This document shows positions 25,765 to 41,744 of a stretch of 64,000 nt of DNA, in pieces (the stretch's first letter is position 1; every line of letters starts with the position of its first letter). Source of the DNA: Candidatus Altimarinota bacterium (GTDB lineage: Bacteria > Patescibacteriota > Gracilibacteria > CAIRYL01); NCBI GenBank assembly GCA_965250085.1, contig OZ252287.1:896001-960000 (forward strand). The letters run 5' to 3'. The translations under genes and the position numbers were made by a program. A model generated the notes under the pieces. It ran no database searches. It worked only from the letters and a program-made list of their open reading frames with translations, and had not been told where the DNA came from.

Positions 25765-26844
25765 ATGAATGCAGACACAAAACTTTTTTGGGCACAACTG
25801 GATTTTCTCACCATGCGCCGTCTTAAAATTTTAAGGCGATATTTCGGGGATTTGGAAACAGCAAAAGAGCATTTTTCTGAAGCAGAATTTCTCAAGGCCG
25901 GCATACCACGGCGCAGTGTGACGGCTCTTATAAAAAAACAAAGGGAGATGAATTTCAGAAAAATTCAGAAAAAATTTGAAGAATCGGAAGCGACGCTGCT
26001 TTTTTTGGAAGATGGGGACTTTCCCGAGTCGCTCAAAAATATTTCTGACTCGCCTATCTTTCTCTTTATCCAAGGCGAGATACTTCCAGAAGATCTTTTG
26101 TCGCTCTCGGTCGTCGGAACCAGAAGATGTTCTGCTCATGGCAAGCAGTGTGTGCACCATGTGCTCCCCGACATCATTCATGCGGGATTCACCATTGTCT
26201 CTGGCATGGCACGCGGCATTGACTCTCTGGCGCACCAGGAAGCCCTCGCTCGAGGCGGACGCACTATTGCTGTCTGGGGCACGGGAATAGACAGAGTGTA
26301 TCCAGAAGAGAACAAGGCTCTGGCACACAAGATCAGAGAGCAAGGCGCCATTATTTCTGAATTTCCCCTCGGCACGGAGCCCAACAATTACAATTTCCCC
26401 CGCCGGAACCGCCTGATTTCCGGGCTTTCACTCGGGACACTCGTGATAGAAGGCAAAGACAAGTCCGGCTCTCTCATCACTGCGCACCTTGCTCTCGAAC
26501 AGGGGAAAGAGGTGTTTGCCGTCCCCGGATCCCCCTTTCTCCCTCTTTCAGAAGCGACGAATCGTTTGATCAAAAAAGGCGAAGCAAAGCTTGTGCAAAC
26601 CAGCGATGATATTCTGGAAGAATTTGAATTTGTGCACGAAGTGGAGAAAAAACCGCTTCTCAAGCCCGAGAACAAACTGGAAGAGATTATTTGTGGAATT
26701 CTCACCAAAGAACCTCTTGCCTTTGACGAACTGGTGATACAAGCCTCAAAGCCGAGCCATGAGCTCAGCAGTGCCCTCACCGTAATGGCGATGAAAGGTA
26801 TGGTGCGAGACTTGGGAATGAATCAATGGGCGAAGAGTTTTTGA
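25765..26844 (+). CDS. dprA: DNA processing protein DprA
   Basis: SVVGTR, IVSGMARGID, NFPRRNRLISGLS, SGSLITA, VFAVPG, C-terminal winged helix. Confidence 0.97.
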   Translation: MNADTKLFWAQLDFLTMRRLKILRRYFGDLETAKEHFSEAEFLKAGIPRRSVTALIKKQREMNFRKIQKKFEESEATLLFLEDGDFPESLKNISDSPIFLFIQGEILPEDLLSLSVVGTRRCSAHGKQCVHHVLPDIIHAGFTIVSGMARGIDSLAHQEALARGGRTIAVWGTGIDRVYPEENKALAHKIREQGAIISEFPLGTEPNNYNFPRRNRLISGLSLGTLVIEGKDKSGSLITAHLALEQGKEVFAVPGSPFLPLSEATNRLIKKGEAKLVQTSDDILEEFEFVHEVEKKPLLKPENKLEEIICGILTKEPLAFDELVIQASKPSHELSSALTVMAMKGMVRDLGMNQWAKSF

Positions 26845-26859
26845 TCCATAGTTTTCTCC

Positions 26860-26911
26860 CTAAGCGGGAGCAGGTGTCATTCGCTTCGCTCAGAACACTT
26901 GCTCCCGCGTG
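26860..26911. repeat. Empty RAYT-element doublet (right end joined to left end), REP hairpin
   Basis: CTAAGCGGGAGCAGGTGT-CATTCGCTTCGCTCAGA-ACACTTGCTCCCGCGTG; 14-bp stem with one mismatch. Confidence 0.9.
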
Positions 26912-26914
26912 AAG

Positions 26915-27074
26915 AACTTATAGTCATTTTCATAAGAAGAAGACTGTTCATCGAGTCTTACATCCCCATACGGGTAGTAATCTAACAGCTGAATGATATT
27001 CCCTGCATCATCCGTATCCACATTACTGCCCGTCACAGATGATCTGCATAATGATAGATGATAGAGGGAGTGCC
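26915..27074 (-). pseudogene. Isolated RHS-core fragment
   Basis: Near copy of 30951-31108 (GTPSIIYHYADHL...ENDYKF) with a 2-nt insertion; bounded by RAYT ends on both sides. Confidence 0.9.
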
Positions 27075-27364
27075 CTAAGCGGGAGCAGGTGTGCCTTGTG
27101 CCACCTGGTCCTGATATTCTAAAAGGGTCAGCAATTGCAAGAGGACCATGGGGACAAGCAGATGAATGTAGCCAGTACTCTGGCCTAGCCACATATATAG
27201 CCAATCTTTGATGGTACAGGTTACAAAATACAGAGAGCTGTTCATGTCTTTATCAATGCGTATAGAAGGCATAGGTTGTGAACAAAGTAGAGTTAAAAGA
27301 TTGTGAGTGAAGGATGATGGAACCAGGTGTCATTCGCTTCGCTCAGAACACCTGCTCCCGCGTG
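27075..27364 (-). mobile_element. Internally deleted non-autonomous RAYT element (290 bp)
   Basis: Both ends present; RAYT 5' part (MPSIRIDK...KDWLY) joined to the 3' part (YVARPEYW...) at ATAT microhomology. Confidence 0.9.
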
Positions 27365-27390
27365 ATACAAAGTGAATGTTGGTGCACGCG

Positions 27391-27771
27391 TTATCGGGGA
27401 AAAACCATAAAAGATTCTATACTCATTTCTGTCGGTGAGAAAAATCTATTAATCCCAAACCAGAAAGAAATAGCTACAAAAAATACATACGCCAACATCC
27501 TTCCAACTATATGAAAGTCTGAATACTTTTTCATTTTATCCAGATTATAATACATACTAGCAACTCCTATTCCAAGAAAAAGAGAGATAATATATATTAC
27601 CCAAAGCGTAGCTATTCTTCCATTATAGTCGATATTCTCGAAGAATGTGTTAATAATGAAGAAAACAGATGTCAATAAAAATATGAAATTACACCCAAAA
27701 TAAACTAATAGCCACATTAAGTACCTTAATGACAAGGTCAATTCTCTCTTTAATAAAACTATATTTTTCAT
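27391..27771 (-). CDS. Putative immunity protein E (3 TM)
   Basis: AT-rich membrane-protein ORF immediately downstream of the RHS-LysM cassette. Confidence 0.7.
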   Translation of the reverse strand: MKNIVLLKRELTLSLRYLMWLLVYFGCNFIFLLTSVFFIINTFFENIDYNGRIATLWVIYIISLFLGIGVASMYYNLDKMKKYSDFHIVGRMLAYVFFVAISFWFGINRFFSPTEMSIESFMVFPR

Positions 27772-27798
27772 AAAAAAACTAAAAAGAACAAAAAGGGT

Positions 27799-28974
27799 TT
27801 AATCATTTTTGTCATCCTTGTCACTACCCTCTTTCAGGCTCTCAGGAACCCTAATTTTTTGACCGGGATTGATCAGACTTGGGTTATCTAAATTATTGTA
27901 CTCAGCAACCTGATTCCAATCGCTTCCAAAAATACCTGATAATGTATCTCCTTTCTGAACAGTGTAAAATTCAGATTCAGGGAGCTGTGGACCATAAACA
28001 GGTGGCTGAATCGGACCGATAAATACTGAATTTTGATAATTATTTTGCGTAATGTTTAAAGATTGTTCAGGAGATTCATTGAGTTGTTGCTTAATTTCTG
28101 CCAAAGTTTCCCCATTAGGGATAACAGAAGTTGTCATAAACAGAGGCACGGGATCTTCATCTTTACCTGAAAATCCTTTTGCTATGTTTATTAATCCAAC
28201 GCTTCCAACGTGAACTCCCTCATACATTGCACCTACTCCTGCATATGCTGCAATCCCTGAAGATCCATAAGTTAAAGATGCTCCTCCCACCACACCAAGC
28301 CCGCCAATGCCTAATTCTACTGTACCTTCCCCTACTGTTCTCCAATTCACATCCCAACTTGCGGGGTTGTACCATTCTTCCCCACTCGGATCCACATACT
28401 TGAGCGGATTATTCCTCACATATGCATATTTATTGAGTGATTGCGGATCAGAAATATCTCCAAACCAGGGATCAAGGGAAATAAACCTCCCAATCCCACT
28501 ATCATAATACCTCGCCTCATAGTAGTAGAGCCCCGTATCCTCATCCTTCTCTTTGCCCGTAAACTTATAGTCATTTTCATACGAAGAAGACTGTTCATCC
28601 AGCCTCACATCCCCATACGGATAATAATCCAGTAGCTGAAGAACATTCCCCATATCATCTGTATCCACATTGCTTCCGGTGAGATGATCTGTATGGTGAT
28701 ACACCACATCACTCTCATATGAAGGGACACTCACCTCTCCACACCACCAATTCGCCTCCTCAACCACTGGCCAAGCGACCTGTTCACCCGTACTTAAATT
28801 CACCACACACATCTCACCAAAGGTCTCGAGGTAATGTGCTTCCGTAACAGTTCCAGAAAGAGAAGTTTCATTCTCCCAGAGGGGTGATGTGTCTCCAGCA
28901 CAACCTGACAAATCAACTGTGCAAGTACTCCCACTGCCACTGACCAGACCATCAGAAGAGGCGGCTACTTTCAT
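27799..28974 (-). CDS. Orphan RHS cassette E: Cys-rich insert, RHS core, Gly-rich tip with LysM
   Basis: YHHTDHLTGS, FTGKEKDEDTGLYYYEARYYD, NPLKYVDPSG cleavage motif; YTVQKGDTLSGI...INPGQKIRVP LysM. Confidence 0.9.
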   Translation of the reverse strand: MKVAASSDGLVSGSGSTCTVDLSGCAGDTSPLWENETSLSGTVTEAHYLETFGEMCVVNLSTGEQVAWPVVEEANWWCGEVSVPSYESDVVYHHTDHLTGSNVDTDDMGNVLQLLDYYPYGDVRLDEQSSSYENDYKFTGKEKDEDTGLYYYEARYYDSGIGRFISLDPWFGDISDPQSLNKYAYVRNNPLKYVDPSGEEWYNPASWDVNWRTVGEGTVELGIGGLGVVGGASLTYGSSGIAAYAGVGAMYEGVHVGSVGLINIAKGFSGKDEDPVPLFMTTSVIPNGETLAEIKQQLNESPEQSLNITQNNYQNSVFIGPIQPPVYGPQLPESEFYTVQKGDTLSGIFGSDWNQVAEYNNLDNPSLINPGQKIRVPESLKEGSDKDDKND

Positions 28975-29011
28975 GTTTTTTTAAAGAGAAAAATTTGATT
29001 TACCGCACGCG

Positions 29012-29617
29012 TTATACCTGTCCGCTGTGGTGGAAACGTGCGCTAGCGAAAAAAACCTTGAATATAAGATAAATTTTAAGACAAATTTCAAGAAAATTTG
29101 GAACAGAGGCAAAATAATTTTTTTCGATGTTAAATAAGAAAAATAAGTAGGTTTGAGAAAAGAGAATAAGTAAAAGTAGAAATAAGAATACTGTTGTATT
29201 TAAAGATAATTTTATCTTTTCCCTTGATTGAGCTTTTAACAAGAATCCAATAATCAGCCAGCCAAAAGATATAACAATAAAAAGGTAGAGAAAAAAATAC
29301 CCGGCTAGTCCTTCATTTATTTGGAAAGACAAGGTAAAAAAGTAACTTAGTAACGGCAGAGAGAAGAGTAATACGGCCAAGACTATTGTTTTCCAAACTT
29401 CGCTTTTTGTTCTTTGGTAATAGACATAAGATAAAAGACTACTTATCGCCAGTATGACAGAGCACAGTAGTGAAATCCTCACGATGAATAGATTTGAATT
29501 TGTTAAGAATAGAGCAAGAAGAATAAACGATAGCAAAGTACTCCATAGATAAGTTTTTCGTAAAGCTCCCGCAAGGTTTTTCATAAGTTTAAAATAAAAG
29601 TGTTTTAGGAATTTCAT
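29012..29617 (-). CDS. Putative immunity protein D (multi-TM), paralog of 33210-33779
   Basis: NEGLAGYFFLY..ISFGWL aligns with FNGLAGWFFFQ..GSIGWV; follows a hydrolase-tip remnant. Confidence 0.75.
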   Translation of the reverse strand: MKFLKHFYFKLMKNLAGALRKTYLWSTLLSFILLALFLTNSNLFIVRISLLCSVILAISSLLSYVYYQRTKSEVWKTIVLAVLLFSLPLLSYFFTLSFQINEGLAGYFFLYLFIVISFGWLIIGFLLKAQSREKIKLSLNTTVFLFLLLLILFSQTYLFFLFNIEKNYFASVPNFLEICLKIYLIFKVFFASARFHHSGQV

Positions 29618-29739
29618 TCAATAAAATCTTTAATATAACCCCATGCTTAAGAATTTCTTAGCCAACTGTGGATTTCAACGTTTCCGTGTCCTGTATCCCC
29701 AAATCCCAAATTAACAACATTGGCTTCTGGTCTCCATGT
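29614..29739 (-). pseudogene. Remnant of a third hydrolase toxin tip (D)
   Basis: Translates TWRPEANVVNLGFGDTGHGNVEIHSWLRNS*AWGYIKDFIE*, matching IHSWIRSDQAW and FHSWLRTSDAW of tips A and C. Confidence 0.8.
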
Positions 29740-29741
29740 AG

Positions 29742-30053
29742 CTATAGCATCACTTCTTCTATTGTATTGATCAGACCTAAAGAAAAGAGAGCCTTGGTTG
29801 TGAAATAATTAAGAACAAAGTAAAAGATTATAGTAAGAGTAGTTGCAATCAAAATACCCAGGCTCTTTGAGGTAGTCAATTTTTCTGCTAAAAACAGACA
29901 AAACTTACAAATGAGCCATAAATAAGTAAAAAATAGAATAATTATCAAAAATAATTGAATCATTATATATGAATCACCCAGTGGTAATCCAATCTTAAAC
30001 AAAAAATCTGTGATAGCAGTTGCAATATAATTTATAAATGACGGGAAAATCAT
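29742..30053 (-). CDS. Putative immunity protein C (membrane)
   Basis: Hydrophobic AT-rich ORF directly after toxin cassette C. Confidence 0.7.
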   Translation of the reverse strand: MIFPSFINYIATAITDFLFKIGLPLGDSYIMIQLFLIIILFFTYLWLICKFCLFLAEKLTTSKSLGILIATTLTIIFYFVLNYFTTKALFSLGLINTIEEVML

Positions 30054-30082
30054 AATTTCCTATAAAATGATAAAATTAAAAA

Positions 30083-31300
30083 CTAATTATCATCGTTTTT
30101 AGTAGTTTTAGAGCTACCGTCATCATGCAACTCGGGTATACCGTCTTCATTTGTTTCAGCCTTTAAGATACCTAAATTTACAAGCTGATCTTTTATTGAA
30201 TTATTCCAAGCATCAGATGTTCTTAGCCAACTATGAAACTTGTTCGAAGACCAATAAAAGTTTCCACCTCTTGCACGCAAATTAACAGCTTTTTCTAAAG
30301 CGTGTCTAAAACGACCCCTAATAGACATAGGTGGATATGCGACCTTACCAGCAATTTGTACATTATCTGACCTATGATACACATTTATAAAATCAACAAC
30401 GGTTGAGTCTTTATCGGAGAGAAAGTAGTTATCATGAACAGGCGTTCCTAATGTGAGAAGAGTATCCACCTTTCTTCCAAGTCCACTATTTATTGCTTCA
30501 ATGGCAACATTGCCACCATGACTGTGTGCAACTATATTTAGTTGCTCACCTTCGGAAAAATTATAGTTAGAGATAAAACCTTGAAGAGACCTTGCTCCAT
30601 TGGCACGGGCCTCGGTGCTGTTTTTTCCAGACCAGTTGAAAGCCGCAGAAGATTTGTCACCAAGGTCACTAGTTACTCTGTTCATGTAAGAACTGGAAAA
30701 AGAATTTCGACTTTTTCCTGGCAAAACAGTTCCATGAATAAAGATAGTGAGAAGCCCATCAGGATCAATTGCACCCAAGGGATTATTACGGACATAAGTG
30801 TACGAATTTAATTGCTGAGGATCCTTCAGGAAAGTTTCTGGAGAAAGTTTTGCCATCGGGTCAATAGCAGTAAACCTCCCAATCCCAGAATCATAATACC
30901 TCGCTTCATAATAATACAAACCCGTATCCTCATCCTTCTCTTTGCCCGTAAACTTATAGTCATTTTCATAAGAAGAAGACTGTTCATCGAGTCTTACATC
31001 CCCATACGGGTAATAATCCAGTAGCTGAATGATATTCCCTGCATCATCCGTATCCACATTACTGCCCGTCAGATGATCTGCATAATGATAGATGATAGAG
31101 GGAGTGCCGCCCTCTGCCGGAGGTTCCCCTCCTCCTCCATTCCCATGATCCACCGTAATCGCACCGGAACTGTATACCATGACCGGTGCATTGACCCCAT
31201 CGTCAATCACTCCATAGACATACTGATCCCCTTCAGGCAGACCTGAGGTGTCCCAATACAGAGAGCTGTTCATGTCTTTATCAATGCGTATAGAAGGCAT
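30083..31300 (-). CDS. Chimeric orphan RHS cassette C: RAYT N-terminal 15 aa, RHS core, alpha/beta-hydrolase tip
   Basis: MPSIRIDKDMNSSLY fused to WDTSGLPEG...; NPLGAIDPDG; AHSHGG nucleophile elbow; LLTLGTP. Confidence 0.9.
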   Translation of the reverse strand: MPSIRIDKDMNSSLYWDTSGLPEGDQYVYGVIDDGVNAPVMVYSSGAITVDHGNGGGGEPPAEGGTPSIIYHYADHLTGSNVDTDDAGNIIQLLDYYPYGDVRLDEQSSSYENDYKFTGKEKDEDTGLYYYEARYYDSGIGRFTAIDPMAKLSPETFLKDPQQLNSYTYVRNNPLGAIDPDGLLTIFIHGTVLPGKSRNSFSSSYMNRVTSDLGDKSSAAFNWSGKNSTEARANGARSLQGFISNYNFSEGEQLNIVAHSHGGNVAIEAINSGLGRKVDTLLTLGTPVHDNYFLSDKDSTVVDFINVYHRSDNVQIAGKVAYPPMSIRGRFRHALEKAVNLRARGGNFYWSSNKFHSWLRTSDAWNNSIKDQLVNLGILKAETNEDGIPELHDDGSSKTTKNDDN

Positions 31301-31392
31301 AGGTTGTGAACAAAGTAGAGTTAAAAGATTGTGAGTGAAGGATGATGGAACCAGGTGTCATTCGCTTCGCTCAGAACACCTGCTCCCGCGTG
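31256..31392 (-). mobile_element. RAYT left-end stub (REP hairpin, leader, first 15 codons)
   Basis: Matches 27228-27364; CAGGTGT-CATTCGCTTCGCTCAGA-ACACCTGCTCCCGCGTG at 31352-31392. Confidence 0.9.
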
Positions 31393-31395
31393 AAA

Positions 31396-31938
31396 TTAAC
31401 TATCAACTAATAATTCTTTAAAATTCTTACAGGAATCTTTGATATGAGGAACAGTGTGTATTTTTAAGTTAAAAATTATCTCCCATATACGATCGGTATT
31501 TTTCTGTTGATTTTTTTCTTTCTTTATCTCCGTGTTCAAAATTGTCTCGATATCCATATATATTTCTTCAATATCGAGAGACATCTCACCGAGTCTTTCC
31601 TCAGATAATCGTTCTTGAAATTTCTTACTAATTTTTGATCTAAAACTAAAAGTACTAGGATTAGATCCTAAATAAGATTTTCCATCAGAGACATTTAATT
31701 CATCAAGATAGCCAGAAAGCAACCCTGATAACTGTTCTATTTTCTGAAAGTTCTCATAAAGCTCATTCAAGTGACCAAGGTCAAGTTTTTTTAATTTCAG
31801 TAAATTCTTGGTATTGGATAAAGTCAAAATCAGTCTGCCATAATTGCTGTAAAATTCAATTCTCTGATTATCAGAAAAATTACTAAAATTACTAAAAATA
31901 ACTTTTACATCTACATTAGCATCTTTTGGGATATTCAT
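31396..31938 (-). CDS. Putative soluble immunity protein B
   Basis: AT-rich 180-aa ORF directly downstream of basic toxin tip B. Confidence 0.7.
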   Translation of the reverse strand: MNIPKDANVDVKVIFSNFSNFSDNQRIEFYSNYGRLILTLSNTKNLLKLKKLDLGHLNELYENFQKIEQLSGLLSGYLDELNVSDGKSYLGSNPSTFSFRSKISKKFQERLSEERLGEMSLDIEEIYMDIETILNTEIKKEKNQQKNTDRIWEIIFNLKIHTVPHIKDSCKNFKELLVDS

Positions 31939-31965
31939 ATCTAGGATTATTAATATTAAAAAAGT

Positions 31966-32327
31966 CTAATTCTCAAGCTTCTTTTTTAATCTTCTAACAT
32001 TTGTTCTTTTCTTAGCAATTTCTTTCCTGAAGCCTCTTATGTCCTTCTTCCACTTTTTAGCATGGTATTCGTAATCTTGCCGAGTATTCTCTTTCCAGTA
32101 GTTTTTATTTTTTGTAGTGGGATCTTTAATGTACCCTTCATGTTCTTTTCTCCGCTTATTATATGATCTCATTCCCTTTTTTTCACGCCTAATCTGTTCT
32201 TTAATTTTTAATATTTCCTCCTTTCTCATCGCCGAAGGCAAATTGCTCATCCCATGAGCTGTCATGGCAACACCAGTAACAGAAACACCGGCAGAAGTTC
32301 CACATCCTACAGCTCCACCTGCAGTAC
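31966..32327 (-). pseudogene. 5'-truncated RHS-type toxin tip B (very basic)
   Basis: Frame reads TAGGAVGCGTSAGVSVTGVA-MTAHG...RSYNKRRKEHEGYIKDP...KKWKKDI; begins exactly at the RAYT right end. Confidence 0.7.
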
Positions 32328-32867
32328 TTAAGCGGGAGCAGGTGTGCCTTGTGCCACCTGGTCCTGATACTCAAAAGGGTCAGCAATTGCAAGAGGACCA
32401 TGGGGACAAGCAGATGAATGTAGCCAGTACTCTGGCCTAGCCACATATGTTCTTTTTACAGGATTATTTTCTATATATTCTTTTTTTTGCCAAAAATAAT
32501 CCTCAGATTCAATAACCTTGGGCATATTTGTTTTTTCCCAAATACAATACTTTCCATTTTTCATAAAAGCCGATTCTAAAGATGGTTCTGTGGAACGAAT
32601 ATTTTGCATCAATTCATATGCTGTATACTTTTTAAAATCACGGACAAATCCTGCTACATCAGGACATTGTATGATCATGTGAATATGATTGATCATAAAT
32701 ACGTATGCAAAAATTTGCAGGTCTTTATTTTGCTGACAGTATTCAAGTGAATTTGTGAGAAGACCCCAACGATCATAGCGGTCCAAAATATATAGCCAAT
32801 CTTTGATGGTACAGGTTACAAAATACAGAGAGCTGTTCATATCTTTAGAAACACGTATAGAAGGCAT
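32328..32867 (-). CDS. REP-associated tyrosine transposase (RAYT, Y1 HUH family), 179 aa
   Basis: LYFVTCT, AYVFMINHIH (HUH), RDFKKYT, catalytic YIENNPV, W..SSA. Confidence 0.93.
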   Translation of the reverse strand: MPSIRVSKDMNSSLYFVTCTIKDWLYILDRYDRWGLLTNSLEYCQQNKDLQIFAYVFMINHIHMIIQCPDVAGFVRDFKKYTAYELMQNIRSTEPSLESAFMKNGKYCIWEKTNMPKVIESEDYFWQKKEYIENNPVKRTYVARPEYWLHSSACPHGPLAIADPFEYQDQVAQGTPAPA

Positions 32868-32950
32868 AGGTTTTGTGAATAAGGCGGCTAAAGATTGTGA
32901 GTGAAGGATGATGGAAGTCATTCGCCTCGCTCAGAACACCTGCTCCCGCG
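32328..32950 (-). mobile_element. Full-length RAYT element with hairpin ends
   Basis: Right end TTAAGCGGGAGCAGGTGTGCCTTGTGCCACCTGGTCC; left end GTCATTCGCCTCGCTCAGAACACCTGCTCCCGCG; 14-bp terminal inverted repeat. Confidence 0.88.
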
Positions 32951-33228
32951 GAAGATATGATTGATCATAAATACGTATGCAAAAATTTGCAGGTCTTTAT
33001 TTTGCTGACAGTATTCAAGTGAATTTGTGAGAAGACCCCAACGATCATAGCGGTCCAAAATATATAGCCAATCTTTGATGGTACAGGTTACAAAATACAG
33101 AGAGCTGTTCATATCTTTAGAAACACGTATAGAAGGCATAGGTTGTGAACAAAGTAGAGTTAAAAGATTGTGGGTGAAGGATGATAGGAGCAGGTGTCAT
33201 TCGCTTCTCTCAGAACACCTGCCGCGTG
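32951..33228 (-). mobile_element. 5'-partial tandem duplicate of the RAYT element
   Basis: Coding part matches the full copy up to MINHI, then joins the next left end; own left-end hairpin at 33187-33228. Confidence 0.9.
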
Positions 33229-33779
33229 GAGCTTGATTTTATTAAGAGTGGAAAGACCAACAAAAATACTAATAATAAAATCTTGAAGACATGAAATGCA
33301 GAAAATAAAAAATCAGAAGGATCATATAAAAACCAAACATATAAACTATAAAAAACAATGCCAATAAGAGTAGAAAAAAAAATAAAAAAACAAGAAAAAA
33401 ATCCAAGCTTTTTATAAAAATGAAAAGAAATCAAATATGCAAAAACCCAACCTATTGAACCAATTATAACCCCTTGAAAAAAGAACCATCCAGCAAGACC
33501 ATTAAATGTGCGAAAAGTAGAAATGTAATCATGAATCGAATAAACAATGCAAAGAAGTGATAAAGAAACAACTATTTTTAAGAGTGCCGACTCAAAACAA
33601 AAAGAAGAAAAGTAATAATTAGCCAGGCTGAATACAATAAATGATAAAAACACTGGCAATAAAATATGAGTATAGGGAATTGGATAACTCATAAAAATTA
33701 GAAAAACCAAACTGATAACGACTGATGTTACACAGCATCCATAACTTACTTTTTTGACAGCCTTAGGAAAATTATTCAT
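33210..33779 (-). CDS. Putative immunity protein A (multi-TM), cognate of the full-length RHS toxin
   Basis: Directly downstream of RHS; about 6 hydrophobic helices; last residues TRQVF* are read from the REP end. Confidence 0.8.
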   Translation of the reverse strand: MNNFPKAVKKVSYGCCVTSVVISLVFLIFMSYPIPYTHILLPVFLSFIVFSLANYYFSSFCFESALLKIVVSLSLLCIVYSIHDYISTFRTFNGLAGWFFFQGVIIGSIGWVFAYLISFHFYKKLGFFSCFFIFFSTLIGIVFYSLYVWFLYDPSDFLFSAFHVFKILLLVFLLVFPLLIKSSSTRQVF

Positions 33780-33796
33780 ATGACAAAAAGAAAAAC

Positions 33797-36700
33797 TTAT
33801 TCTTTTGAGCCCTCTTCCTGCTTCTTTTTTATAGTTTCTCGATTACGAAGGCTTCGAATCATAGTTCCGATATCACTCCAGGCTTGATCACTTCTTATCC
33901 AACTGTGGATATCTATTTTTTCTTGTGTATAACTCAAAGGCTGATTAAATTCTAAATTAGAAGTTCCACTTGCTCCTCTCCAAGGATGTCGAGGTTTTTC
34001 ATCCGTTCCCTCAGCACCAGCCCATTGAACAATATCTTCTACATGATACACATTATAAACCTCATGAATATTTGTTGTATCTAATTCATAATCTGATCTA
34101 TTTGGAGTTGCCAATAACACTAAAGCATCAACATTTCTGCGAATTCTTTCATTATTAATAGCTTCAATGGCAACATTTCCACCATGACTATGCCCTACTA
34201 TATTTAATTGCTCACCTTCTGCAAATTCGTAATGTTCATTTATATATTTTGCAAGAGCCATAGCAGCTACGGATCGTTCGGACTTATTGTTTCCACCAGA
34301 CCATCGCATATTAATATATTTATTGTCACCCAAGTCAGCGGAGGCTTTTTTCATATAACTTTCTGAGAAAGGATTTGCATCTTTCCTTGGCAAAACAGTT
34401 CCATGAATAAAGATAGTGAGAAGTCCATCAGGATCAATTGCACCTAAAGGATTATTCCGCACATAAGTATAAGAATTAGACTGTTGTGGATCAGTTAAAA
34501 AGGTTTCTGGGATATATCTGGCAATCGGATCCACACTCACAAACCTCCCAATCCCAGAATCATAATACCTCGCCTCATAATAATACAACCCCGTATCTTC
34601 ATCCTTCTCTTTCCCCGTAAACTTATAATCATTTTCATAAGAAGAAGACTGTTCATCCAACCTCACATCTCCATAGGGATAATAGTCGAGGACTTCCAAT
34701 ACATTTCCCATATCATCCGTATCTACATTAGACCCTGTCAGATGATCTGCATGATGGTACACAATCGCAGGAGTGCCGCCCTCTGCCGGAGGTTCCCCTC
34801 CTCCTCCATTCCCATGATCCACCGTAATCGCACCGGAACTGTATACCATGACCGGTGCATTGACCCCATCGTCAATCACTCCATAGACATATTGATCCCC
34901 TTCAGGCAGACCTGAGGTGTCCCATGTATAGCTGTCAGACACATCATCTTCAGAGATCCCCTGCTCGTTGATACTCCTTCCATCAAATCCTTCAGTATCT
35001 GTATCAGAAAAGAAAGAAACAGACGCATCGTCATCGGGATCAGAGTCTGTCCAGGTAATCACAAATGAAGTATCGGCTGTGTCATCCACTCCATCAGGTT
35101 CCACAAGAGTGAGCGTGGGAGGCGTGTTATTCGTCCCTCCTGTATCTCCATGATCTACTGTCACTGGTCCCGCACTGTATACCGTGACCGGAGGATTGAC
35201 CTCATCGTCAATCACTCCATAGACATAGTAGTCTCCACTCAGAAGATCTGTCGTATCCCATGTATAACTATCGGTCGCATCGTCTTCAGAGGTTGCCACC
35301 AGCAGTCTTCCATCAGCACCACTATTATCTGCATCAGAAAAGAAAGAGAGGGAGGCGTCATCATCCGGGTCATCATCTGTCCAGGTAATCCCAAACGACG
35401 TATCGGCTGTGTCATCCGTTCCATCTGGTTCCACAATCGTCAATGAAGGAGCAGTATTCCCCGACCCCCCGCCTTCGTGATATACAAAAACCGAACCCCC
35501 GCTATATGCGATGACGGGTGCATTGACCCCATCGTCAATTATTGCTGAGAGTGGATATTCTCCCTCTGGAATTGCAGAGGTATCCCACAAAAAAGAGTCG
35601 GTCGTATCGTCTTCACTGAGCAGTGGAGACGTAACGGAGACAAATTCAGTTCCATCATGATATCTCACATCGATGGATGCATCGTCATCTGGATCAGAAT
35701 CCGTCCACGTGATGAGAAAACTCTGGTCAGCACCATTATCTTGGTCAAATGCGGGGAAAAGGAAGGTAAATGTGGGCGGAATGTTTCCTTGTGCGTGTGC
35801 GGAAGAAAAAAGCATAGAAGAAAACACGGACGGGATATCGAGATATGAAGAACGCCCATTATTGCCATTTCCGTTCCCGTTGCCATTCCCATTCCCATTC
35901 CCACCGCCCGATGGAGGGGGAGAACCGGGAACAATCTCGGCGTTCGAGAGAGTTGCAACTTTCATACCGCCGGCTGGCAGGGAGACAAAATTCTTCACCT
36001 CGCCATCTTCAATGTCAGAATATTCATTGACATATATTGTCTCTTTTCCACTGGTCGCATTGACCTTTTTCACTCTCGCGCCTCCTTCATCATACTCATA
36101 ATTCACGGTGCTCACTCCATCTGTAGAGCTCAGCATGCGGTCTTTGTAGTCCCAGCTATGGGTCCACGTATCATTGGAAAGAAGATTTCCATTTTTATCA
36201 TATGTGTACGGAACGGTTTGAGATTTCCCTTTCACTTTTGGTGTTATGATTTGAGTAACGGCATGGGGATTCGCTGTCGTCCCAGAACTGGTAGCAGAAC
36301 CTCCTCCTGCATAGGCATAGGTGCCAGCTTCTGAATGGCTCAGCATATTGCCAATGATATCATAGGTAAATTCACGAGTATAATTGTCTCCATTGGCGGC
36401 ATTGGTCACGGTTGCGGAGAGCAGTCTGTCCAGATCGTCATAGGTATAATTCACGGTTTTTGCAGAATTGGTGCTAGACGCATCTACTATTTGGGTAATG
36501 TTTCCCACCGGATCAAAGGTGTAGCTGATGTCTTGTAGTAGGGGCTCAAGATTTTGAGCCTCTACGATAGTGGTTTTATTGGTCAGTCGGTAGATCTGAT
36601 TGATATCATAGGTGTTTACGGTGCTCACGCCATTGGCGGAGTCGATTTGAGAGATACGTCCAATGGGAGAGGAGTCAATATTTGTTATCACCGGTGAAGA

Positions 36701-39700
36701 ACTCAGTCCATCACATCCATTCGTCATGCCAATATCACTGTCAGAAAAACATTGCGAAACAGTTTCTAATTGCCCCGCTCTGCCATATCCATATTCCACC
36801 GCTGTTTTTCCGTCAGGATACGTGATACTCAGCTGGTTCCCCACTAAATCATAGGTGAACGAAGTGGTATAAGTTGTCGCGTTGATATCTTTACTCTCAC
36901 TCAAAACTCGTCCCAAGATATCGTAGGCATAGTCTTTTTCCACGGCTGAGGAAACAATCCGCCTCAGACGTCCGGTGCCATGGGTGCCGAGATCATAGGT
37001 ATAGGTAGCTTGGAGCTGGGAGTCGGGAGCTGGGAGTGTGCGAGAAGACTCTGTCAGCACTCGGTCGAGCTCATCATAGGCATACGTGATTTCCTGATCC
37101 TTTGGATCAATTTGAGAGATGAGATTGCTATTGGCATCATAGTCATAACTCCAGGTGCCAAAGGTGGTATCTCCAGAGGTATGCAGATCCTGCATGGTGA
37201 GACGGCGACCAAGCAGGTCGTAGGTCATACTTCGTTCGTTTCCCTTGGCATCGGTAATCTTCGTGAGATTATTCAATTGATCATAGGTGTAGTTTGTATT
37301 GAAAGTACTGCCATCGAGGTGTTCAGTGACTTGCACCAGATTGCCCCTCGCATCGGATGCAAAATCTTTGGAATGTCCATTGGCATCGGTCACGGTTTGT
37401 GACCATTGGTCGTAGCTGGTAGAAGTGGTGCCGACGGGAGTGGTAATACTCGTGACACGATTGATCGTGTCATACGAGAGCTGGGAGCCAGGAGTTTGGA
37501 GCTGGGAGGAGTCGTAAGAACTTCCGGTCTCAAATGTGGGAAGGGTTTGTTTCTCCACATTTCCCCGATTATCATACTGAGTACTGAGTACTGTGTACTG
37601 ATTACTTCCTTCAGCTTCAGTTCTCGTTTGGATGGTTCTGCCAAAGCCGTCCAGGTACACAATCCCCTCTATCAAAATCTCCCCCAGCCCCTCTTTGCGA
37701 AAGAGGGAGGGTGTATGGGTGTGGGTCGTCGTCGTTACACTATTGGGCACTGAAGAGGTATTGTAGCTATATGTAGCGGCAGTTACTTCGTTCGCAGGTG
37801 ATGCGGGATTGGTGACTCGTGATTCAACCACTCGTCCCAGACTATCTAGCACGGTAATTGATTTCGCTCCATTGGGATCGGTGACTTGTGTGGGTACTCC
37901 GAAAAGGTAATTATATTCATAATTTGTACTGTGTGATTTGGCATTGGTAATTGTCTTGGGATACAGATTTACTGAATCATAGATAATATTAGTGTCGTAT
38001 CCACGGGGATTGGTGATCTTGGTCGGAAGACCGTATCCATTGTATTGAGTTTTCGTAGAAATCCACTGCTGACTGCTGACAACTGACAACTGACTCCTTT
38101 CTGTTCTGTTTCCAATGGAGACCTGCCCCAGCGGGAGATCATCATAATACATTTTGCTTTCTCCAATGACGTTTCCACCATTATCGAGTAACTCCTGTCT
38201 TTTAGGGAGAGAGAGGATATGATCGGTGGTGCTTAGGGCGTATTCAATATTGCTGGTGAGGGTATCGGAGCCGATGTCGGTAAAATTTCCCGCACCATCC
38301 ACAGCATTGACTTCTCCATAGTCAATTTGCTGTGTCATATTTCCGTACGCGTCGTAACTGAATTCTGAAGCGGTAGCTTTGTAATTGACGGAGCTTTGTT
38401 CGGAATAGGTCAGGGCGATGTTTTTTTCTAGGAGTGATTCATAACTATTGGTTCCACGAGGTTTAATATCGTAGAAGTTTTTTACTTCTTGTAATACATC
38501 TCCTACAGGAGTGTATATTTTTTGATTTTTCAGAGATCCTTTGCCGGCAAAATTTTGTGAAGGACTTCCCTGCTCGTATTCGGTCACAACTTTGGAACCA
38601 TCTGGCAGTGTTTTGGTGACGGTTTGAAATCCCAGAAGCTCCTGCTCCTGCACATGATTTCTATACATTTTCCCTCCGGTATATTCGTAGTTTATTTCAC
38701 TGGTATTTCCCAAACCGTCATTTGTAGAGAGTTTAGAAAGTGTCAGGCGGGGAATCGGAAGTTCAATATTAGCGGCACTTCCATCAGCATTGGTATAACT
38801 GGAAGCAGGAGTGTATTCAAAGCTTGCTGACCCTCCGAGAGGACTTGTCACACTGGTAAGGACAGGAAGGTCAAAAATAACGTCTTCTAATTCTGGAGAA
38901 ATATTTCCTTCGTCCATTTCCCGATATCTGTAACGAATATATTTTTCCTGGATACCATCATGGTTGATGTCTGTAAAATCATACACCGCATGAGCATCAG
39001 GATTATTCGGGTTTCCAAATTTCAAATCATTTCTCTGTATAAACGCATCTTCCCAACCGTTCCCATTATTGAGATACACCATACCAAGTGATTGAAAATA
39101 CATATCTGGTAGTCCATCACGATTGATGTCCATGAGTTTCGCATCTGCAAGATATCCATCATACTCGCAAGAATTCTCACCAGGAGTGCTTGAACTGTTG
39201 CAATCTTGCCCACGTTGTTCATACATGCGTGCCGGTAGAATGAGTTCTTCAGTGATATCATCCCATCCTTCTCCAGTGTTTAATAATATTTTCTTGCTCT
39301 CTACAAATGACCCAGGAATAGGATTTTCGTAGTCATAATCATAAAAAGCTTCGTATTGATAATCATGCACCAGGTCATCGAGACCGTCATTATTGATATC
39401 GATAAAAGTGCTTCCTGCTTGATGGTACACATCGTTAGGTATATACCACGCATGATTTGTGTCATCTTCATCAAGCCATCTGTCAGCCCCCTGACCGTTA
39501 TTTTTATAGAATATGTAGTCTTTTGTATTATTTCTTCGCCTTTCTCCATAATTAAACGCATCGAGAAGTGAGTCTTTATTCACATCGAGAAAAAAGTATC
39601 CGTATTTATATTCCGCATTCTCAGAGAGAAGCCACTGAAATGGTTCATTCGGGTCACAGACAAAACGATCACTCTGATTATTTCCATCATCAACACAGTG

Positions 39701-41167
39701 ATTGAGTTCAATATCACCGTTAAAATCAAGATATGATGACGATACAAGAGATTCTCCATCGTGAAGATCATGAAGGCCATGATTAAGAGGTATTACTTCT
39801 TCTGTCAGATCGCCATTCCCCTGATTCAGGTACAGCTTCATTTCATACTCATCATTTCCTACATATCGATTAGCAAAATAATCTTGCCAGCCATCGCTAT
39901 TATAATCGCCAAAAATATAGTGGTAGAGTCTATTTTGCCAATGTCCCCCTAAATTCGGATCCCAATAAGCCGGAAAATCAAGAGAGAATGACCGGGAACC
40001 ATCATAGGATTCATACTCAAACACAGTGGGAGGAAGGGACAGCTCACTTCCATTGGAGACCCCCTTTTGTTCTACGTTTTCCAGAAAAACAATGGTGTCC
40101 TGAGTGGCATAAGAAAATGTATACACGACTTTGTCTCCCGAAAATGGATCGATGACTTCTATCTGATCCAATACATCTCGTTGCTCCACCACTGGAAACA
40201 GTCTGGAATACGATGGGAGCATATCAAATTGTTCAATAGTGCCGGAAAAATAGGGTTCAAAACGAACTTCATAGGGCTGAGTTTCATTTCCATACACAAT
40301 ACGCTGTAAATAGACAGCTCCCTGACTTTTGGTATATTCATACGATATTGTATTGCCATTGGTATCTTTCATTTCCGTAACATACCAGGCGTACATCCTG
40401 CCTCCATCATCACTCTGCTCCCGTGCATCTGACATGGTTCCAAAACGATATATTGTGCCGGTAGCATCAATAATTTCCCAGGTATTATCTATTTTGAATT
40501 CATGGCGCACTACTCCAGCCTGTACCTTGGGAATGTACGTTCCATATCCATTGGCATCAATAGATTCAATGGTGAGTTCTCCACTGCCACCGGCAAAAGG
40601 AGAGAGGAAATTGTTGTTCGTGTACAGATCTTCTACCCCCGTGCGTGAGTATCGTTCTATCTTGGGAAGACTCAAACTCCATCCGGTGCCCAGTTCAGAA
40701 TTGACTTCTTTATTGCTGGCGGAATAGCTCAATTGAACTGAAGGAGTAAAGCCATTCCTTCCGGGTGGCACGAAAATGGGATATGAATACTGCACATCTC
40801 CGGTGAATTCACTCACGGTGTATTCACCACCGAGACCGACAACATTGCTCAAAGGATCCAAATTCATTTCTGGCACAAAGGTAAAATCATCATCTTGTCC
40901 GACTGCATTAGCAGATGAAGAAGCGGCAGACTCAAGAGATTCAGAATCTTGTGTTTCAAGAAGAGGTTCAGCAGAAGATAGTTCTTCGGAAGAATCTTCT
41001 CCAACAGGATTTTCCGCCTCATTGGTAGCAATTGATTCTTCTATAGCCTCTTGTGAATCCAATGTTACAGATTCATCTACCGTCGAAGCGTCCTGTGCAA
41101 ATGCGACAGGCAATATTCCTCCTTGAAGGAGGATAAAAGTACATAAAAAACATAATAATTTTTGCAT
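33797..41167 (-). CDS. 2456-aa secreted SpvB/FG-GAP/YD-repeat RHS polymorphic toxin with alpha/beta-hydrolase tip
   Basis: Signal peptide (..PVAFA-Q); SpvB-like YSYPIFVPPGRNGFTPSVQLSYS; DxNxDGxxD repeats; many YD repeats; three Ig-like repeats; RHS core; NPLGAIDPDG; GHSHGG. Confidence 0.95.
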   Translation of the reverse strand: MQKLLCFLCTFILLQGGILPVAFAQDASTVDESVTLDSQEAIEESIATNEAENPVGEDSSEELSSAEPLLETQDSESLESAASSSANAVGQDDDFTFVPEMNLDPLSNVVGLGGEYTVSEFTGDVQYSYPIFVPPGRNGFTPSVQLSYSASNKEVNSELGTGWSLSLPKIERYSRTGVEDLYTNNNFLSPFAGGSGELTIESIDANGYGTYIPKVQAGVVRHEFKIDNTWEIIDATGTIYRFGTMSDAREQSDDGGRMYAWYVTEMKDTNGNTISYEYTKSQGAVYLQRIVYGNETQPYEVRFEPYFSGTIEQFDMLPSYSRLFPVVEQRDVLDQIEVIDPFSGDKVVYTFSYATQDTIVFLENVEQKGVSNGSELSLPPTVFEYESYDGSRSFSLDFPAYWDPNLGGHWQNRLYHYIFGDYNSDGWQDYFANRYVGNDEYEMKLYLNQGNGDLTEEVIPLNHGLHDLHDGESLVSSSYLDFNGDIELNHCVDDGNNQSDRFVCDPNEPFQWLLSENAEYKYGYFFLDVNKDSLLDAFNYGERRRNNTKDYIFYKNNGQGADRWLDEDDTNHAWYIPNDVYHQAGSTFIDINNDGLDDLVHDYQYEAFYDYDYENPIPGSFVESKKILLNTGEGWDDITEELILPARMYEQRGQDCNSSSTPGENSCEYDGYLADAKLMDINRDGLPDMYFQSLGMVYLNNGNGWEDAFIQRNDLKFGNPNNPDAHAVYDFTDINHDGIQEKYIRYRYREMDEGNISPELEDVIFDLPVLTSVTSPLGGSASFEYTPASSYTNADGSAANIELPIPRLTLSKLSTNDGLGNTSEINYEYTGGKMYRNHVQEQELLGFQTVTKTLPDGSKVVTEYEQGSPSQNFAGKGSLKNQKIYTPVGDVLQEVKNFYDIKPRGTNSYESLLEKNIALTYSEQSSVNYKATASEFSYDAYGNMTQQIDYGEVNAVDGAGNFTDIGSDTLTSNIEYALSTTDHILSLPKRQELLDNGGNVIGESKMYYDDLPLGQVSIGNRTERSQLSVVSSQQWISTKTQYNGYGLPTKITNPRGYDTNIIYDSVNLYPKTITNAKSHSTNYEYNYLFGVPTQVTDPNGAKSITVLDSLGRVVESRVTNPASPANEVTAATYSYNTSSVPNSVTTTTHTHTPSLFRKEGLGEILIEGIVYLDGFGRTIQTRTEAEGSNQYTVLSTQYDNRGNVEKQTLPTFETGSSYDSSQLQTPGSQLSYDTINRVTSITTPVGTTSTSYDQWSQTVTDANGHSKDFASDARGNLVQVTEHLDGSTFNTNYTYDQLNNLTKITDAKGNERSMTYDLLGRRLTMQDLHTSGDTTFGTWSYDYDANSNLISQIDPKDQEITYAYDELDRVLTESSRTLPAPDSQLQATYTYDLGTHGTGRLRRIVSSAVEKDYAYDILGRVLSESKDINATTYTTSFTYDLVGNQLSITYPDGKTAVEYGYGRAGQLETVSQCFSDSDIGMTNGCDGLSSSPVITNIDSSPIGRISQIDSANGVSTVNTYDINQIYRLTNKTTIVEAQNLEPLLQDISYTFDPVGNITQIVDASSTNSAKTVNYTYDDLDRLLSATVTNAANGDNYTREFTYDIIGNMLSHSEAGTYAYAGGGSATSSGTTANPHAVTQIITPKVKGKSQTVPYTYDKNGNLLSNDTWTHSWDYKDRMLSSTDGVSTVNYEYDEGGARVKKVNATSGKETIYVNEYSDIEDGEVKNFVSLPAGGMKVATLSNAEIVPGSPPPSGGGNGNGNGNGNGNGNNGRSSYLDIPSVFSSMLFSSAHAQGNIPPTFTFLFPAFDQDNGADQSFLITWTDSDPDDDASIDVRYHDGTEFVSVTSPLLSEDDTTDSFLWDTSAIPEGEYPLSAIIDDGVNAPVIAYSGGSVFVYHEGGGSGNTAPSLTIVEPDGTDDTADTSFGITWTDDDPDDDASLSFFSDADNSGADGRLLVATSEDDATDSYTWDTTDLLSGDYYVYGVIDDEVNPPVTVYSAGPVTVDHGDTGGTNNTPPTLTLVEPDGVDDTADTSFVITWTDSDPDDDASVSFFSDTDTEGFDGRSINEQGISEDDVSDSYTWDTSGLPEGDQYVYGVIDDGVNAPVMVYSSGAITVDHGNGGGGEPPAEGGTPAIVYHHADHLTGSNVDTDDMGNVLEVLDYYPYGDVRLDEQSSSYENDYKFTGKEKDEDTGLYYYEARYYDSGIGRFVSVDPIARYIPETFLTDPQQSNSYTYVRNNPLGAIDPDGLLTIFIHGTVLPRKDANPFSESYMKKASADLGDNKYINMRWSGGNNKSERSVAAMALAKYINEHYEFAEGEQLNIVGHSHGGNVAIEAINNERIRRNVDALVLLATPNRSDYELDTTNIHEVYNVYHVEDIVQWAGAEGTDEKPRHPWRGASGTSNLEFNQPLSYTQEKIDIHSWIRSDQAWSDIGTMIRSLRNRETIKKKQEEGSKE

Positions 41168-41744
41168 AGTCTAAAAAGAAAAAATTAAAAGACTAGAGCC
41201 TCTCCACTTTTTGTGGAACTAGGCTTTTAGGATCTGTTTCCGCAAAACTCTCCATTTTCTGCTATTCCTCCAGACACTTCTCCAGCCTCTTCGCCTTATC
41301 CAATACATCATCGCAGCATTCCAATGGATCGGAGGCAAACTCGTCATACGATAATAAAAATGAATAAAAATATAAAAATACCGAATAAGTAAACAATATA
41401 CTATATAATTTATTTAAAATAATTCCTCTGGAGACCCCATATTTCTCTAAAAAGCAAGAAGTGGTCAATGATTTTCTTTTACTTTTTAATAAACCCTTAA
41501 TGTTTCATTAAAGGTGTTTTTATGAAAAATGCATGGTTCTACTGCCTCAAAAGTCAGTATTTGCAATTCATATTTTTAAGAAGCGTCAAGAGTAAGTGAG
41601 AAAGTGAATCAATGAATCAGTATATAAGTTGTCAGTATATTCAATTACAAATTACGAATGACAAATTACGAATTCAGTGCTCGGTTCTCAGGGTCGAGAA
41701 AAGGGAGCCTTTATCAAAGATCTTTTTAAGAAAGGAAGCAAAAA

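Follow-up and report, generated by a model that had tools for sequence, protein, structure and literature searches.

An orphan RHS toxin cassette that begins with a transposase fragment in an element-colonised array of a Candidatus Altimarinota bacterium

The window analysed here, a whole stretch of 64,000 nucleotides (nt) from a Candidatus Altimarinota bacterium (contig OZ252287.1, assembly GCA_965250085.1), holds on its minus strand an RHS toxin array that runs from 41167 to 26866. The main RHS gene stands first and is followed by an immunity gene candidate (immunity A), by copies A (a 5' stub) and B (full) of a mobile element with a RAYT-type transposase, and by the open reading frames (ORFs) ORF99 and ORF180. 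Then come orphan C (31394..30083), ORF103, ORF201, a further orphan (orphan B), a membrane ORF of 126 amino acids (aa), the decayed element copy D, a 160-nt RHS fragment and, last, the solo hairpin E. Orphan C is the subject of this work: its ORF begins with the start of the element's transposase gene and continues in frame into an RHS cassette that ends in a toxin tip, tip C. From a comparison of its parts with their counterparts in the array, we conclude that this fused ORF is probably a scar that recombination has left on an orphan RHS toxin/immunity cassette, at its 5' edge, in an element-colonised array.

The fused reading frame and its three parts

The features of orphan C are given below in window coordinates, all on the minus strand.

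31352..31394, minus strand: left-end (LE) hairpin of element copy C, 7+4-bp stem, placed by alignments (nhmmer 31346-31397, E 1.3e-18; DNA fold -8.2 kcal/mol)
31301..31351, minus strand: transposase leader (52 nt) from hairpin to ATG, G-poor, without a promoter-like match
31256..31300, minus strand: first 15 RAYT codons (MPSIRIDKDMNSSLY), matched by the N-terminus of a paralogue
31255, minus strand: junction base T, possible from either parent; 1-nt microhomology
31109..31255, minus strand: main-type RHS segment, 1 mismatch in 146 aligned nt to the main gene (34778-34924), 79/141 to copy D
30951..31108, minus strand: c-type RHS segment, 4 mismatches and a 2-nt indel to 26915-27074, 35/158 to the main gene
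30083..31300, minus strand: fused ORF, 405 aa from ATG, with 15 aa of transposase, half a repeat domain, the Rhs-associated core with DPDGL, and tip C
30086..30760, minus strand: tip C, a predicted minimal alpha/beta-hydrolase (lipase-like) toxin domain with Ser260/Asp312/His356

The earlier note had the LE, the leader and the first 15 RAYT codons meeting the RHS sequence at CTGTAT/TGGGAC within an open 405-aa ORF. This is what we find: the join is exact, with a single shared T (31255), and the frame 30083..31300 starts at the ATG. The element end (31255-31393) recurs at 27227-27365 (139/139), 33094-33228 (90.6%) and 32822-32950 (83.3%), and in each of these copies elsewhere in the locus the ATG opens the transposase reading frame. 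Chance does not account for the repeats of the locus (BLAST E 1e-68 and 0). A diverged RAYT paralogue elsewhere in the genome (position 1,238,737) begins MPSIRIKKDMN, so that the 15 codons MPSIRIDKDMNSSLY are a genuine conserved transposase N-terminus. Truncated transposase 5' stubs occur three times in the locus (copies at 33139, 31300 and 27272), and only the one at 31300 leads into a long ORF; the stub of copy A reaches the next hairpin after 73 codons, and that of copy D has an internal deletion and is out of frame. One in-frame stub junction out of three equals the chance prior of 1 in 3 that the earlier note had itself pointed out, and elsewhere in the locus junctions either miss the frame or are short. 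The in-frame join is most simply put down to chance, and the stubs, as far as their sequences tell, give no sign of selection for the fusion.

The protein encoded by orphan C lacks the shell and export parts of an RHS toxin, and its N-terminal part consists of the 15 transposase residues and half a repeat domain, the junction bisecting the last tandem repeat domain of the RHS protein. Residues 1-63 are predicted to be disordered (AlphaFold predicted local distance difference test, pLDDT, <50). Residues 96-183 match the Rhs-associated core model TIGR03696 with 80.6 bits (cutoff 32.5) and end with DPDGL. A search of 60 relatives with the DNA of the whole fusion region matched only the conserved core (query 328-983) and left the stub unmatched; a plasmid collection had no match to 31256-31420, and the exact 37-nt junction pattern had 0 matches in metagenome contigs. 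The 405-aa product gave 585 protein matches at E ≤ 1e-5. The best of these outside the genome is only 51% identical, and there is hence no sister allele by which the events could be polarised.

The evidence for a scar comes from the mosaic structure of orphan C, for which orphan C, the main gene and copy D were aligned and the differences counted for each part. The stub has 0/139 mismatches to copy D (0/46 in the three-way alignment) and 34/46 to the main gene. In the RHS sequence behind the junction the relation to the main gene changes abruptly, from 1/146 in the main-type segment to 35/158 in the c-type segment (Fisher p = 3e-10). The distances of the stub (0/139) and the c-type segment (4/158) to copy D do not differ significantly (p = 0.08), in keeping with C and D as sister copies of one unit. 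The switch from main-type to c-type falls inside the octamer GGCACTCC, which the sequences have in common. In copy D, the RHS sequence that follows the right terminus of the element opens with GGCACTCC, so the switch lies exactly at that end.

Two further observations concern the copy D fragment. Its in-frame continuation from the transposase 3' end was considered as a meaningful fusion and rejected, because it depends on two frameshifts. At window position 27034, a Logan contig of one run (X3) is without 2 nt (TG) that the copy D fragment has in addition to the sequence of orphan C; this is either population variation or an orphan C contig aligned to copy D.

The element and the array around orphan C

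The genome is a single contig of 1,368,807 bp with 40% G+C, and the closest named relatives of its proteins belong to candidate-phyla-radiation groups. The element measures about 0.63 kb, consists almost entirely of the transposase gene and carries hairpins close to its two ends. It was found as a single full copy, as three truncated copies and as two solo hairpins; those of the window other than copy C are listed here together with the RHS fragment that two of them flank.

32918..33235, minus strand: copy A, intact hairpin, leader and 5' transposase stub (73-aa ORF); tandem partial duplicate of B
32328..32959, minus strand: copy B, hairpin with a 6-nt deletion, full RAYT gene (32864..32328 from Met), right-end (RE) hairpin in the 3' end of the gene
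27075..27369, minus strand: copy D, LE, 27 codons, internal out-of-frame deletion, transposase 3' end, RE
26915..27074, minus strand: c-type RHS fragment, 160 nt, starting exactly at the RE of copy D
26866..26916, minus strand: mini element E, about 56 nt, 5' arm and loop of the LE joined to 3' arm and terminus of the RE

The LE hairpin is imperfect, with the consensus stem GGAGCAGGTGT/ACACCTGCTCC and a loop of 17 nt, and can be folded in five copies. A profile search for it across the whole 1.37-Mb genome gave six matches at E ≤ 7e-14, all within the two RHS loci of the genome, and the next best match had E 0.22. At the other end, the transposase gene stops inside the second (RE) hairpin, which is followed by ...CCCGCTTAR. 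Copies B, D and E have this sequence in common and their flanks diverge completely straight after it, which defines the right terminus. The left terminus is located to within about 3 nt; the flanks 5' of it (CTC, TTC, TTT, TAT, CTT and GTC) are pyrimidine-rich and show no clear target. Copies A and B form a tandem partial duplication (window 32683-33222, minus strand) of about 270 nt and 92% identity that covers the left end and the first 62 codons. The 6-nt deletion abolishes folding of the hairpin in copy B, the only full-length copy, and the hairpin of copy A upstream is intact. No other copy folds as well as mini element E (DNA fold -13.4 kcal/mol, z -3.4), and the 160-nt RHS fragment lies between it and copy D in the manner of a composite element.

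The protein of the full copy (32328..32921) passes the NCBIfam RAYT model NF047646 (81.9 bits, cutoff 80) and Pfam Y1_Tnp (28.1, cutoff 23) and stays below the cutoff of the IS200 equivalog NF033573 (22.9 bits, cutoff 55). It contains NHIHMI and KKYTAYEL, which we take to be the HUH motif and the catalytic-tyrosine motif, respectively. A RAYT would be expected as a single-copy gene with many dispersed REP/REPIN hairpins; six hairpins and three truncated gene copies were found instead. As in IS200/IS605 elements, subterminal hairpins occur at both ends and the termini are defined, without terminal inverted repeats. Judged by its sequence, the element is a RAYT by protein family and an IS200-like insertion sequence by organisation. 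The second RAYT paralogue of the genome (1238737-1239237, plus strand, 166 aa, 54% identical) is not near an RHS gene and is flanked by different hairpins, of the type GGTTCA...TGAACC.

The remaining genes of the array are the following.

33797..41167, minus strand: main RHS gene, 2456 aa, with SpvB, RHS repeats, tandem repeat domains and tip A hydrolase
33210..33779, minus strand: immunity A candidate, 189 aa, membrane protein; final codons and stop inside the hairpin of copy A
31966..32328, minus strand: ORF99 with an open upstream frame, starting from the RE of copy B; possible 3' remnant of another tip
31396..31938, minus strand: ORF180, ending 2-4 nt before the hairpin of copy C
29742..30053, minus strand: ORF103, small membrane protein; candidate immunity gene or fragment
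29012..29617, minus strand: ORF201, membrane protein; candidate immunity gene for tip C
27799..28974, minus strand: orphan B, 391 aa, Rhs-associated core and LysM-bearing tip, with its own ATG

Tip A of the main gene has a weak PGAP1-like hydrolase match. Residues ~1830-2230 of the main RHS protein (window ~34925-36100, minus strand) consist of a (Gly-Asn)n run and three tandem repeat domains of about 110 aa (..TWTDSDPDDDAS..WDTS..IDDGVN..), an unusual insert between the RHS shell and the final Rhs-associated core. The hairpin of copy A (window 33210-33235, minus strand) encodes the end of the immunity A candidate (...STRQVF*), and an ORF over the RHS fragment at 26890 is likewise closed by an element hairpin (...TREQVF*). 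The frame of ORF99 (window 31966-32337, minus strand) is open from the right terminus of the full copy and is first Gly/Ala/Val-rich, then Lys-rich. ORF99 may be the 3' remnant of a toxin tip cut by the element and ORF180 the immunity gene of that remnant; no family match was found for either.

The second RHS locus of the genome (positions 140896-150486, plus strand; locus L011 1974-11991) comprises a main gene of 2117 aa, the tip of which is different, a membrane ORF of 215 aa and an orphan of 356 aa that has a hydrolase tip with 48% identity to tip C. Next come an ORF of 111 aa, a solo hairpin (L011 ~10798-10851) and a third orphan, truncated at LLTIFIHG. We regard the array in the window as an ordinary array of orphan RHS genes that contains insertion-sequence debris and has been colonised by an IS200-like RAYT element.

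Tip C and the repeat shared with the main gene

The predicted structure of tip C has pLDDT values of ~85-96 over residues 181-396. Its top Foldseek match is Bacillus lipase A (E 6e-6, probability 1.0, TM on target 0.60-0.65), and cutinases and esterases come next. The nucleophile elbow reads AHSHGG, and S260, D312 and H356 are invariant in 34 sequences. On the level of sequence, tip C stays below the Pfam lipase cutoffs (PGAP1 23.2, cutoff 24.3; Lipase_2 18.6, cutoff 20.3), and a sequence search of the PDB gave marginal lipase matches only (E 0.059 and 0.47). It is 42% identical in amino acids to tip A and 48% to the orphan of the second locus. Tip C looks intact, as a predicted lipase-type reserve tip with a conserved Ser/Asp/His triad. 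Neither ORF103 nor ORF201, the two genes after the fused ORF, matched a known family. A weak similarity links ORF201 to immunity A (23% identity over 162 aa; E 1e-4 in an eight-protein database), and both genes are candidates for an immunity role.

The RHS part of the fused ORF and the main gene form a direct repeat. The earlier note had described 30719-31255 as a 537-bp homolog of the main RHS segment 34388-34924. Its coordinates stand, the match being ungapped with 463/537 identical nt (86.2%) and 162/179 identical residues (37 synonymous and 17 non-synonymous codon differences). Two points correct it: the identity is very uneven, with one mismatch in 31101-31255 and then 57-95% per 60-nt window, and the homology does not end at 30719. 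Since the hydrolases of tips A and C are homologous to each other, it extends into the toxin domain, at 57-82%. The two copies lie 3.67 kb apart and have perfect runs of 122 and 32 nt, with a 155-nt near-identical block. Recombination through such a direct repeat would join tip C to the main gene and remove 3,669 bp, namely tip A with immunity A, the element copies, and both ORF99 and ORF180. The earlier suggestion that the shared segment allows tip A to be replaced by tip C agrees with the 122-nt perfect run and has an experimental precedent in Salmonella (PMC3967940). Recombination with the main gene through the 155-nt near-identical repeat would be the most likely deployment of tip C. Among the listed pieces of the public contigs of four runs, no main::tip C recombinant was seen; contigs of this kind cannot show rare forms.

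Proposed origin and possible expression of the fused frame

On the basis of the three-part mosaic, we propose the following history. Copies C and D would descend from one unit in which the right end of the element is joined to c-type RHS sequence, and the precursor of orphan C would have begun directly at that right end, as the copy D fragment does now. In C, the transposase body and the right end would then have been swapped for the 146-147 nt of the main gene upstream of GGCACTCC. Such a repair would be homologous on the RHS side and illegitimate, with a 1-nt overlap, at codon 15 of the transposase. In this it is like homology-facilitated illegitimate recombination, or like synthesis-dependent repair with subsequent end joining, and its in-frame outcome would most simply be chance.

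Several points weigh against this history. The events could have taken place in the reverse order, copy D arising from a C-like ancestor by insertion at GGC^GGCACTCC and subsequent recombination between left ends. A crossover at most 8 nt from the start of the homology is unusual for RecA-type exchange. Selection for expression would equally yield a join that keeps the frame along with the authentic start codon and the native leader, and the join is one event only. Sister strain or population data that would polarise the events were not found in metagenome contigs or in 19 other genomes of the order. Finally, none of the listed Logan pieces (26500-41500, four runs) bridges 31255 and no joints are reported; since these contigs break at repeats, their silence neither supports nor refutes the junction.

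That silence touches the reading of the junction as an assembly artefact, a mis-threading through the exact repeats of 139 nt and 122 nt. These repeats stand to either side of the junction, the Logan contigs from the four runs are interrupted at 30741 and 31364, and the sequence occurs in one sample and study only. Nevertheless, an artefact is highly improbable. The parents share only 1 nt at the junction, so that an overlap graph should not have been able to create it without junction reads. At 31223, a mismatch specific to this copy is separated by 32 nt from the junction and by 122 nt from the switch to c-type, which is within the span of one short read. The runs contain 83-91% of the sampled 31-mers of 30700-31700 with no joint reported, no loose end at 31255 is among those listed, and the genome is assembled as a single 1.37-Mb contig.

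Whether the element end drives the cassette was judged from the sequence around the start. The earlier note had supposed that this end gives expression signals to an otherwise silent cassette. Our results do not support this, as no promoter-like site was found, ORF180 directly adjoins upstream and other orphans have starts of their own. A consensus scan found no sigma-70-like site on the minus strand of 31301-31500, and the region as a whole has 15 such sites, compared with 14.3 ± 3.9 in shuffles, and no excess. Upstream of the hairpin the sequence differs in every copy, and any promoter of the element must therefore fit into about 90 nt. The hairpin of copy C has no T-run after it and ORF180 ends 2-4 nt upstream on the same strand, which makes read-through from ORF180 plausible; read-through transcription would be an equally good source as the element end. 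Other orphan fragments in the genome have start codons without a transposase stub. Upstream of 630 long ORFs genome-wide there is no Shine-Dalgarno enrichment: GGAG, GAGG and AGGA are rarer at -20..-4 than in random windows, and G is depleted across -20 to -1 and falls to 8-13% at -17 to -1. Because starts in this genome are G-depleted, the G-poor leader before the ATG at 31300 is a normal start context, and the missing Shine-Dalgarno sequence is uninformative either way. The stub does supply an ATG in a G-poor context typical of the genome, and translation from the transposase ATG is possible; the product would be without signal peptide and RHS shell. Four public runs are listed for the sequence, from one sample and one study, with no RNA run among them.

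These data bear on the proposal, taken from the earlier note, that the element end is a portable promoter and start site for the 405-aa fusion and the immunity genes. Its consequence would be immunity to tip C, or an internal toxin of the toxin-antitoxin kind. The authentic transposase ATG and the native 52-nt leader, nearly identical in A, C and D, have been kept, the context of the ATG matches that of the 630 long ORFs, and the frame is open through an apparently intact toxin tip. Salmonella orphan tips without delivery parts are reported to be expressed as toxin-antitoxin-like modules (PMC7043789). Even so, we consider a portable promoter and start site unlikely: the retained 139 nt hold no promoter-like site and leave only the ~90 nt mentioned above, the single in-frame stub of three corresponds to chance, and same-strand ORFs lie directly upstream. 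An in-frame Met41 together with possible internal core promoters would do as well, and the N-terminal 63 residues of the fusion are a disordered domain fragment. A different role would follow if the RAYT element drove cassette turnover, nicks at hairpins on the cassette borders starting templated repair or mobilising tip-immunity cassettes; in that case the stub would have arisen incidentally, from a system dedicated to shuffling. The confinement of all six hairpins to the two RHS loci is in line with such a role, as is the position of four of them no more than about 30 nt behind the stop codon of an immunity-like gene. The switch in the mosaic coincides exactly with a right-end terminus, and a 160-nt RHS piece is enclosed between mini element E and copy D in a composite-like manner. 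Among distant RAYT relatives in Flavobacteriia, 3/24 loci show the end of an RHS core together with a small ORF shortly upstream, in the same orientation, and in a fourth a DUF6443 giant lies upstream. The 3/24 count comes from tblastn; Pfam was run on 112/148 ORFs covering 20/24 loci. However, 0/40 loci of the nearest RAYT homologues (same class, 37-57% identity) contain the end of an RHS core, up to ±8 kb, and these loci are without the hairpin. The 40 loci are the best places outside the genome itself, the short contig G019:C73 being replaced by G046:C56, and many are cut by contig ends. A general link between RAYTs and RHS genes was accordingly rejected for close relatives. The 32-nt hairpin pattern had 0 matches in metagenome contigs and in the 19 other genomes of the order (0/19), and the hairpin of the only full-length copy is destroyed by its 6-nt deletion. 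Local duplication and recombination in a repeat-rich array account for the clustering with no dedicated role, and local spread is its best explanation in view of the 0/40 loci and the 19 genomes without the hairpin. A dedicated shuffling system is for these reasons quite improbable. In its boldest form this proposal makes the element an RHS-array specialist, in which HUH nicks at border hairpins and repair templated by the main gene would create, patch and re-prime orphans and the in-frame stub would be kept because the cassette can be translated from it and immunity to tip C thereby expressed; to this we give very little credence.

In the Flavobacteriia loci L017, L023 and L024, the RAYT genes (33-38% identity) lie 0.2-1.1 kb downstream of RHS toxin-immunity pairs, and in L012 the RAYT gene lies after the DUF6443 giant. 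Literature searches pairing RAYT with Rhs returned no paper that links the two in the records retrieved.

Orphan RHS cassettes are thought to be silent reserves that are activated by recombination. A cassette that gains a start codon from a mobile element would have a second route of expression, mainly for immunity; the evidence here points to a scar. What the locus offers is a record, at the level of single nucleotides, of how the 5' edge of an orphan was rebuilt beside an element terminus, with one homologous and one illegitimate side. A RAYT-class protein with the organisation of an insertion sequence, confined to toxin loci in a small-genome uncultured bacterium, is also noteworthy. If the stub drives expression, or if the transposase cuts cassette borders, the locus would be a compact model of toxin-cassette turnover. 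If the element were an RHS specialist, a single-strand transposase would be linked to the diversification of polymorphic toxins.

Arrays of displaced tips are known to gather insertion-sequence remnants at their borders. Rhs loci of E. coli carry H-rpt (ISAs1-type) insertion sequences, and orphan cdiA-CT/cdiI arrays are interspersed with transposase fragments; the present array resembles them, with a different insertion-sequence family. We know of no report of an in-frame fusion between a transposase and a toxin tip. For the element itself, Bertels et al. 2017 (PMC5581495) describe insertion-sequence-like RAYT groups (1 and 6). Like the IS200/IS605 elements and RAYTs discussed there, the present element has a Y1 HUH transposase of about 180 aa and imperfect hairpins near both ends. 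Unlike a single-copy RAYT with many REPs, it has six cognate hairpins, several decayed copies and defined termini.

The closest parallel for the array is rhs of Salmonella Typhimurium LT2, where, according to Koskiniemi et al. 2014 (PMC3967940), an orphan tip and its immunity gene likewise lie downstream of the full-length rhs gene on the same strand. Main/orphan recombination was shown there experimentally. The core direct repeat is about 0.5 kb long in both systems (522 bp in Salmonella and 537 bp here), with 95% identity in Salmonella and, here, 86% overall and one 155-nt near-identical block. The recombination-substrate mechanism is already known. The Salmonella orphan is described in the same source as being without translation initiation signals, whereas orphan C has gained an ATG from the transposase stub. 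With regard to expression, Starsta et al. 2020 (PMC7043789) report that the promoters of both orphan and main tips in Salmonella lie within the rhs core and precede the PxxxxDPxGL coding region by 89 nt. In that system an orphan tip lacking delivery parts, as orphan C does, can be expressed up to the protein along with its immunity gene. In contrast to those core promoters, no promoter was identified in the present array, and the proposed source would be the end of a mobile element. The host differs as well, the array described here belonging to an uncultured bacterium with a small genome of 1.37 Mb.

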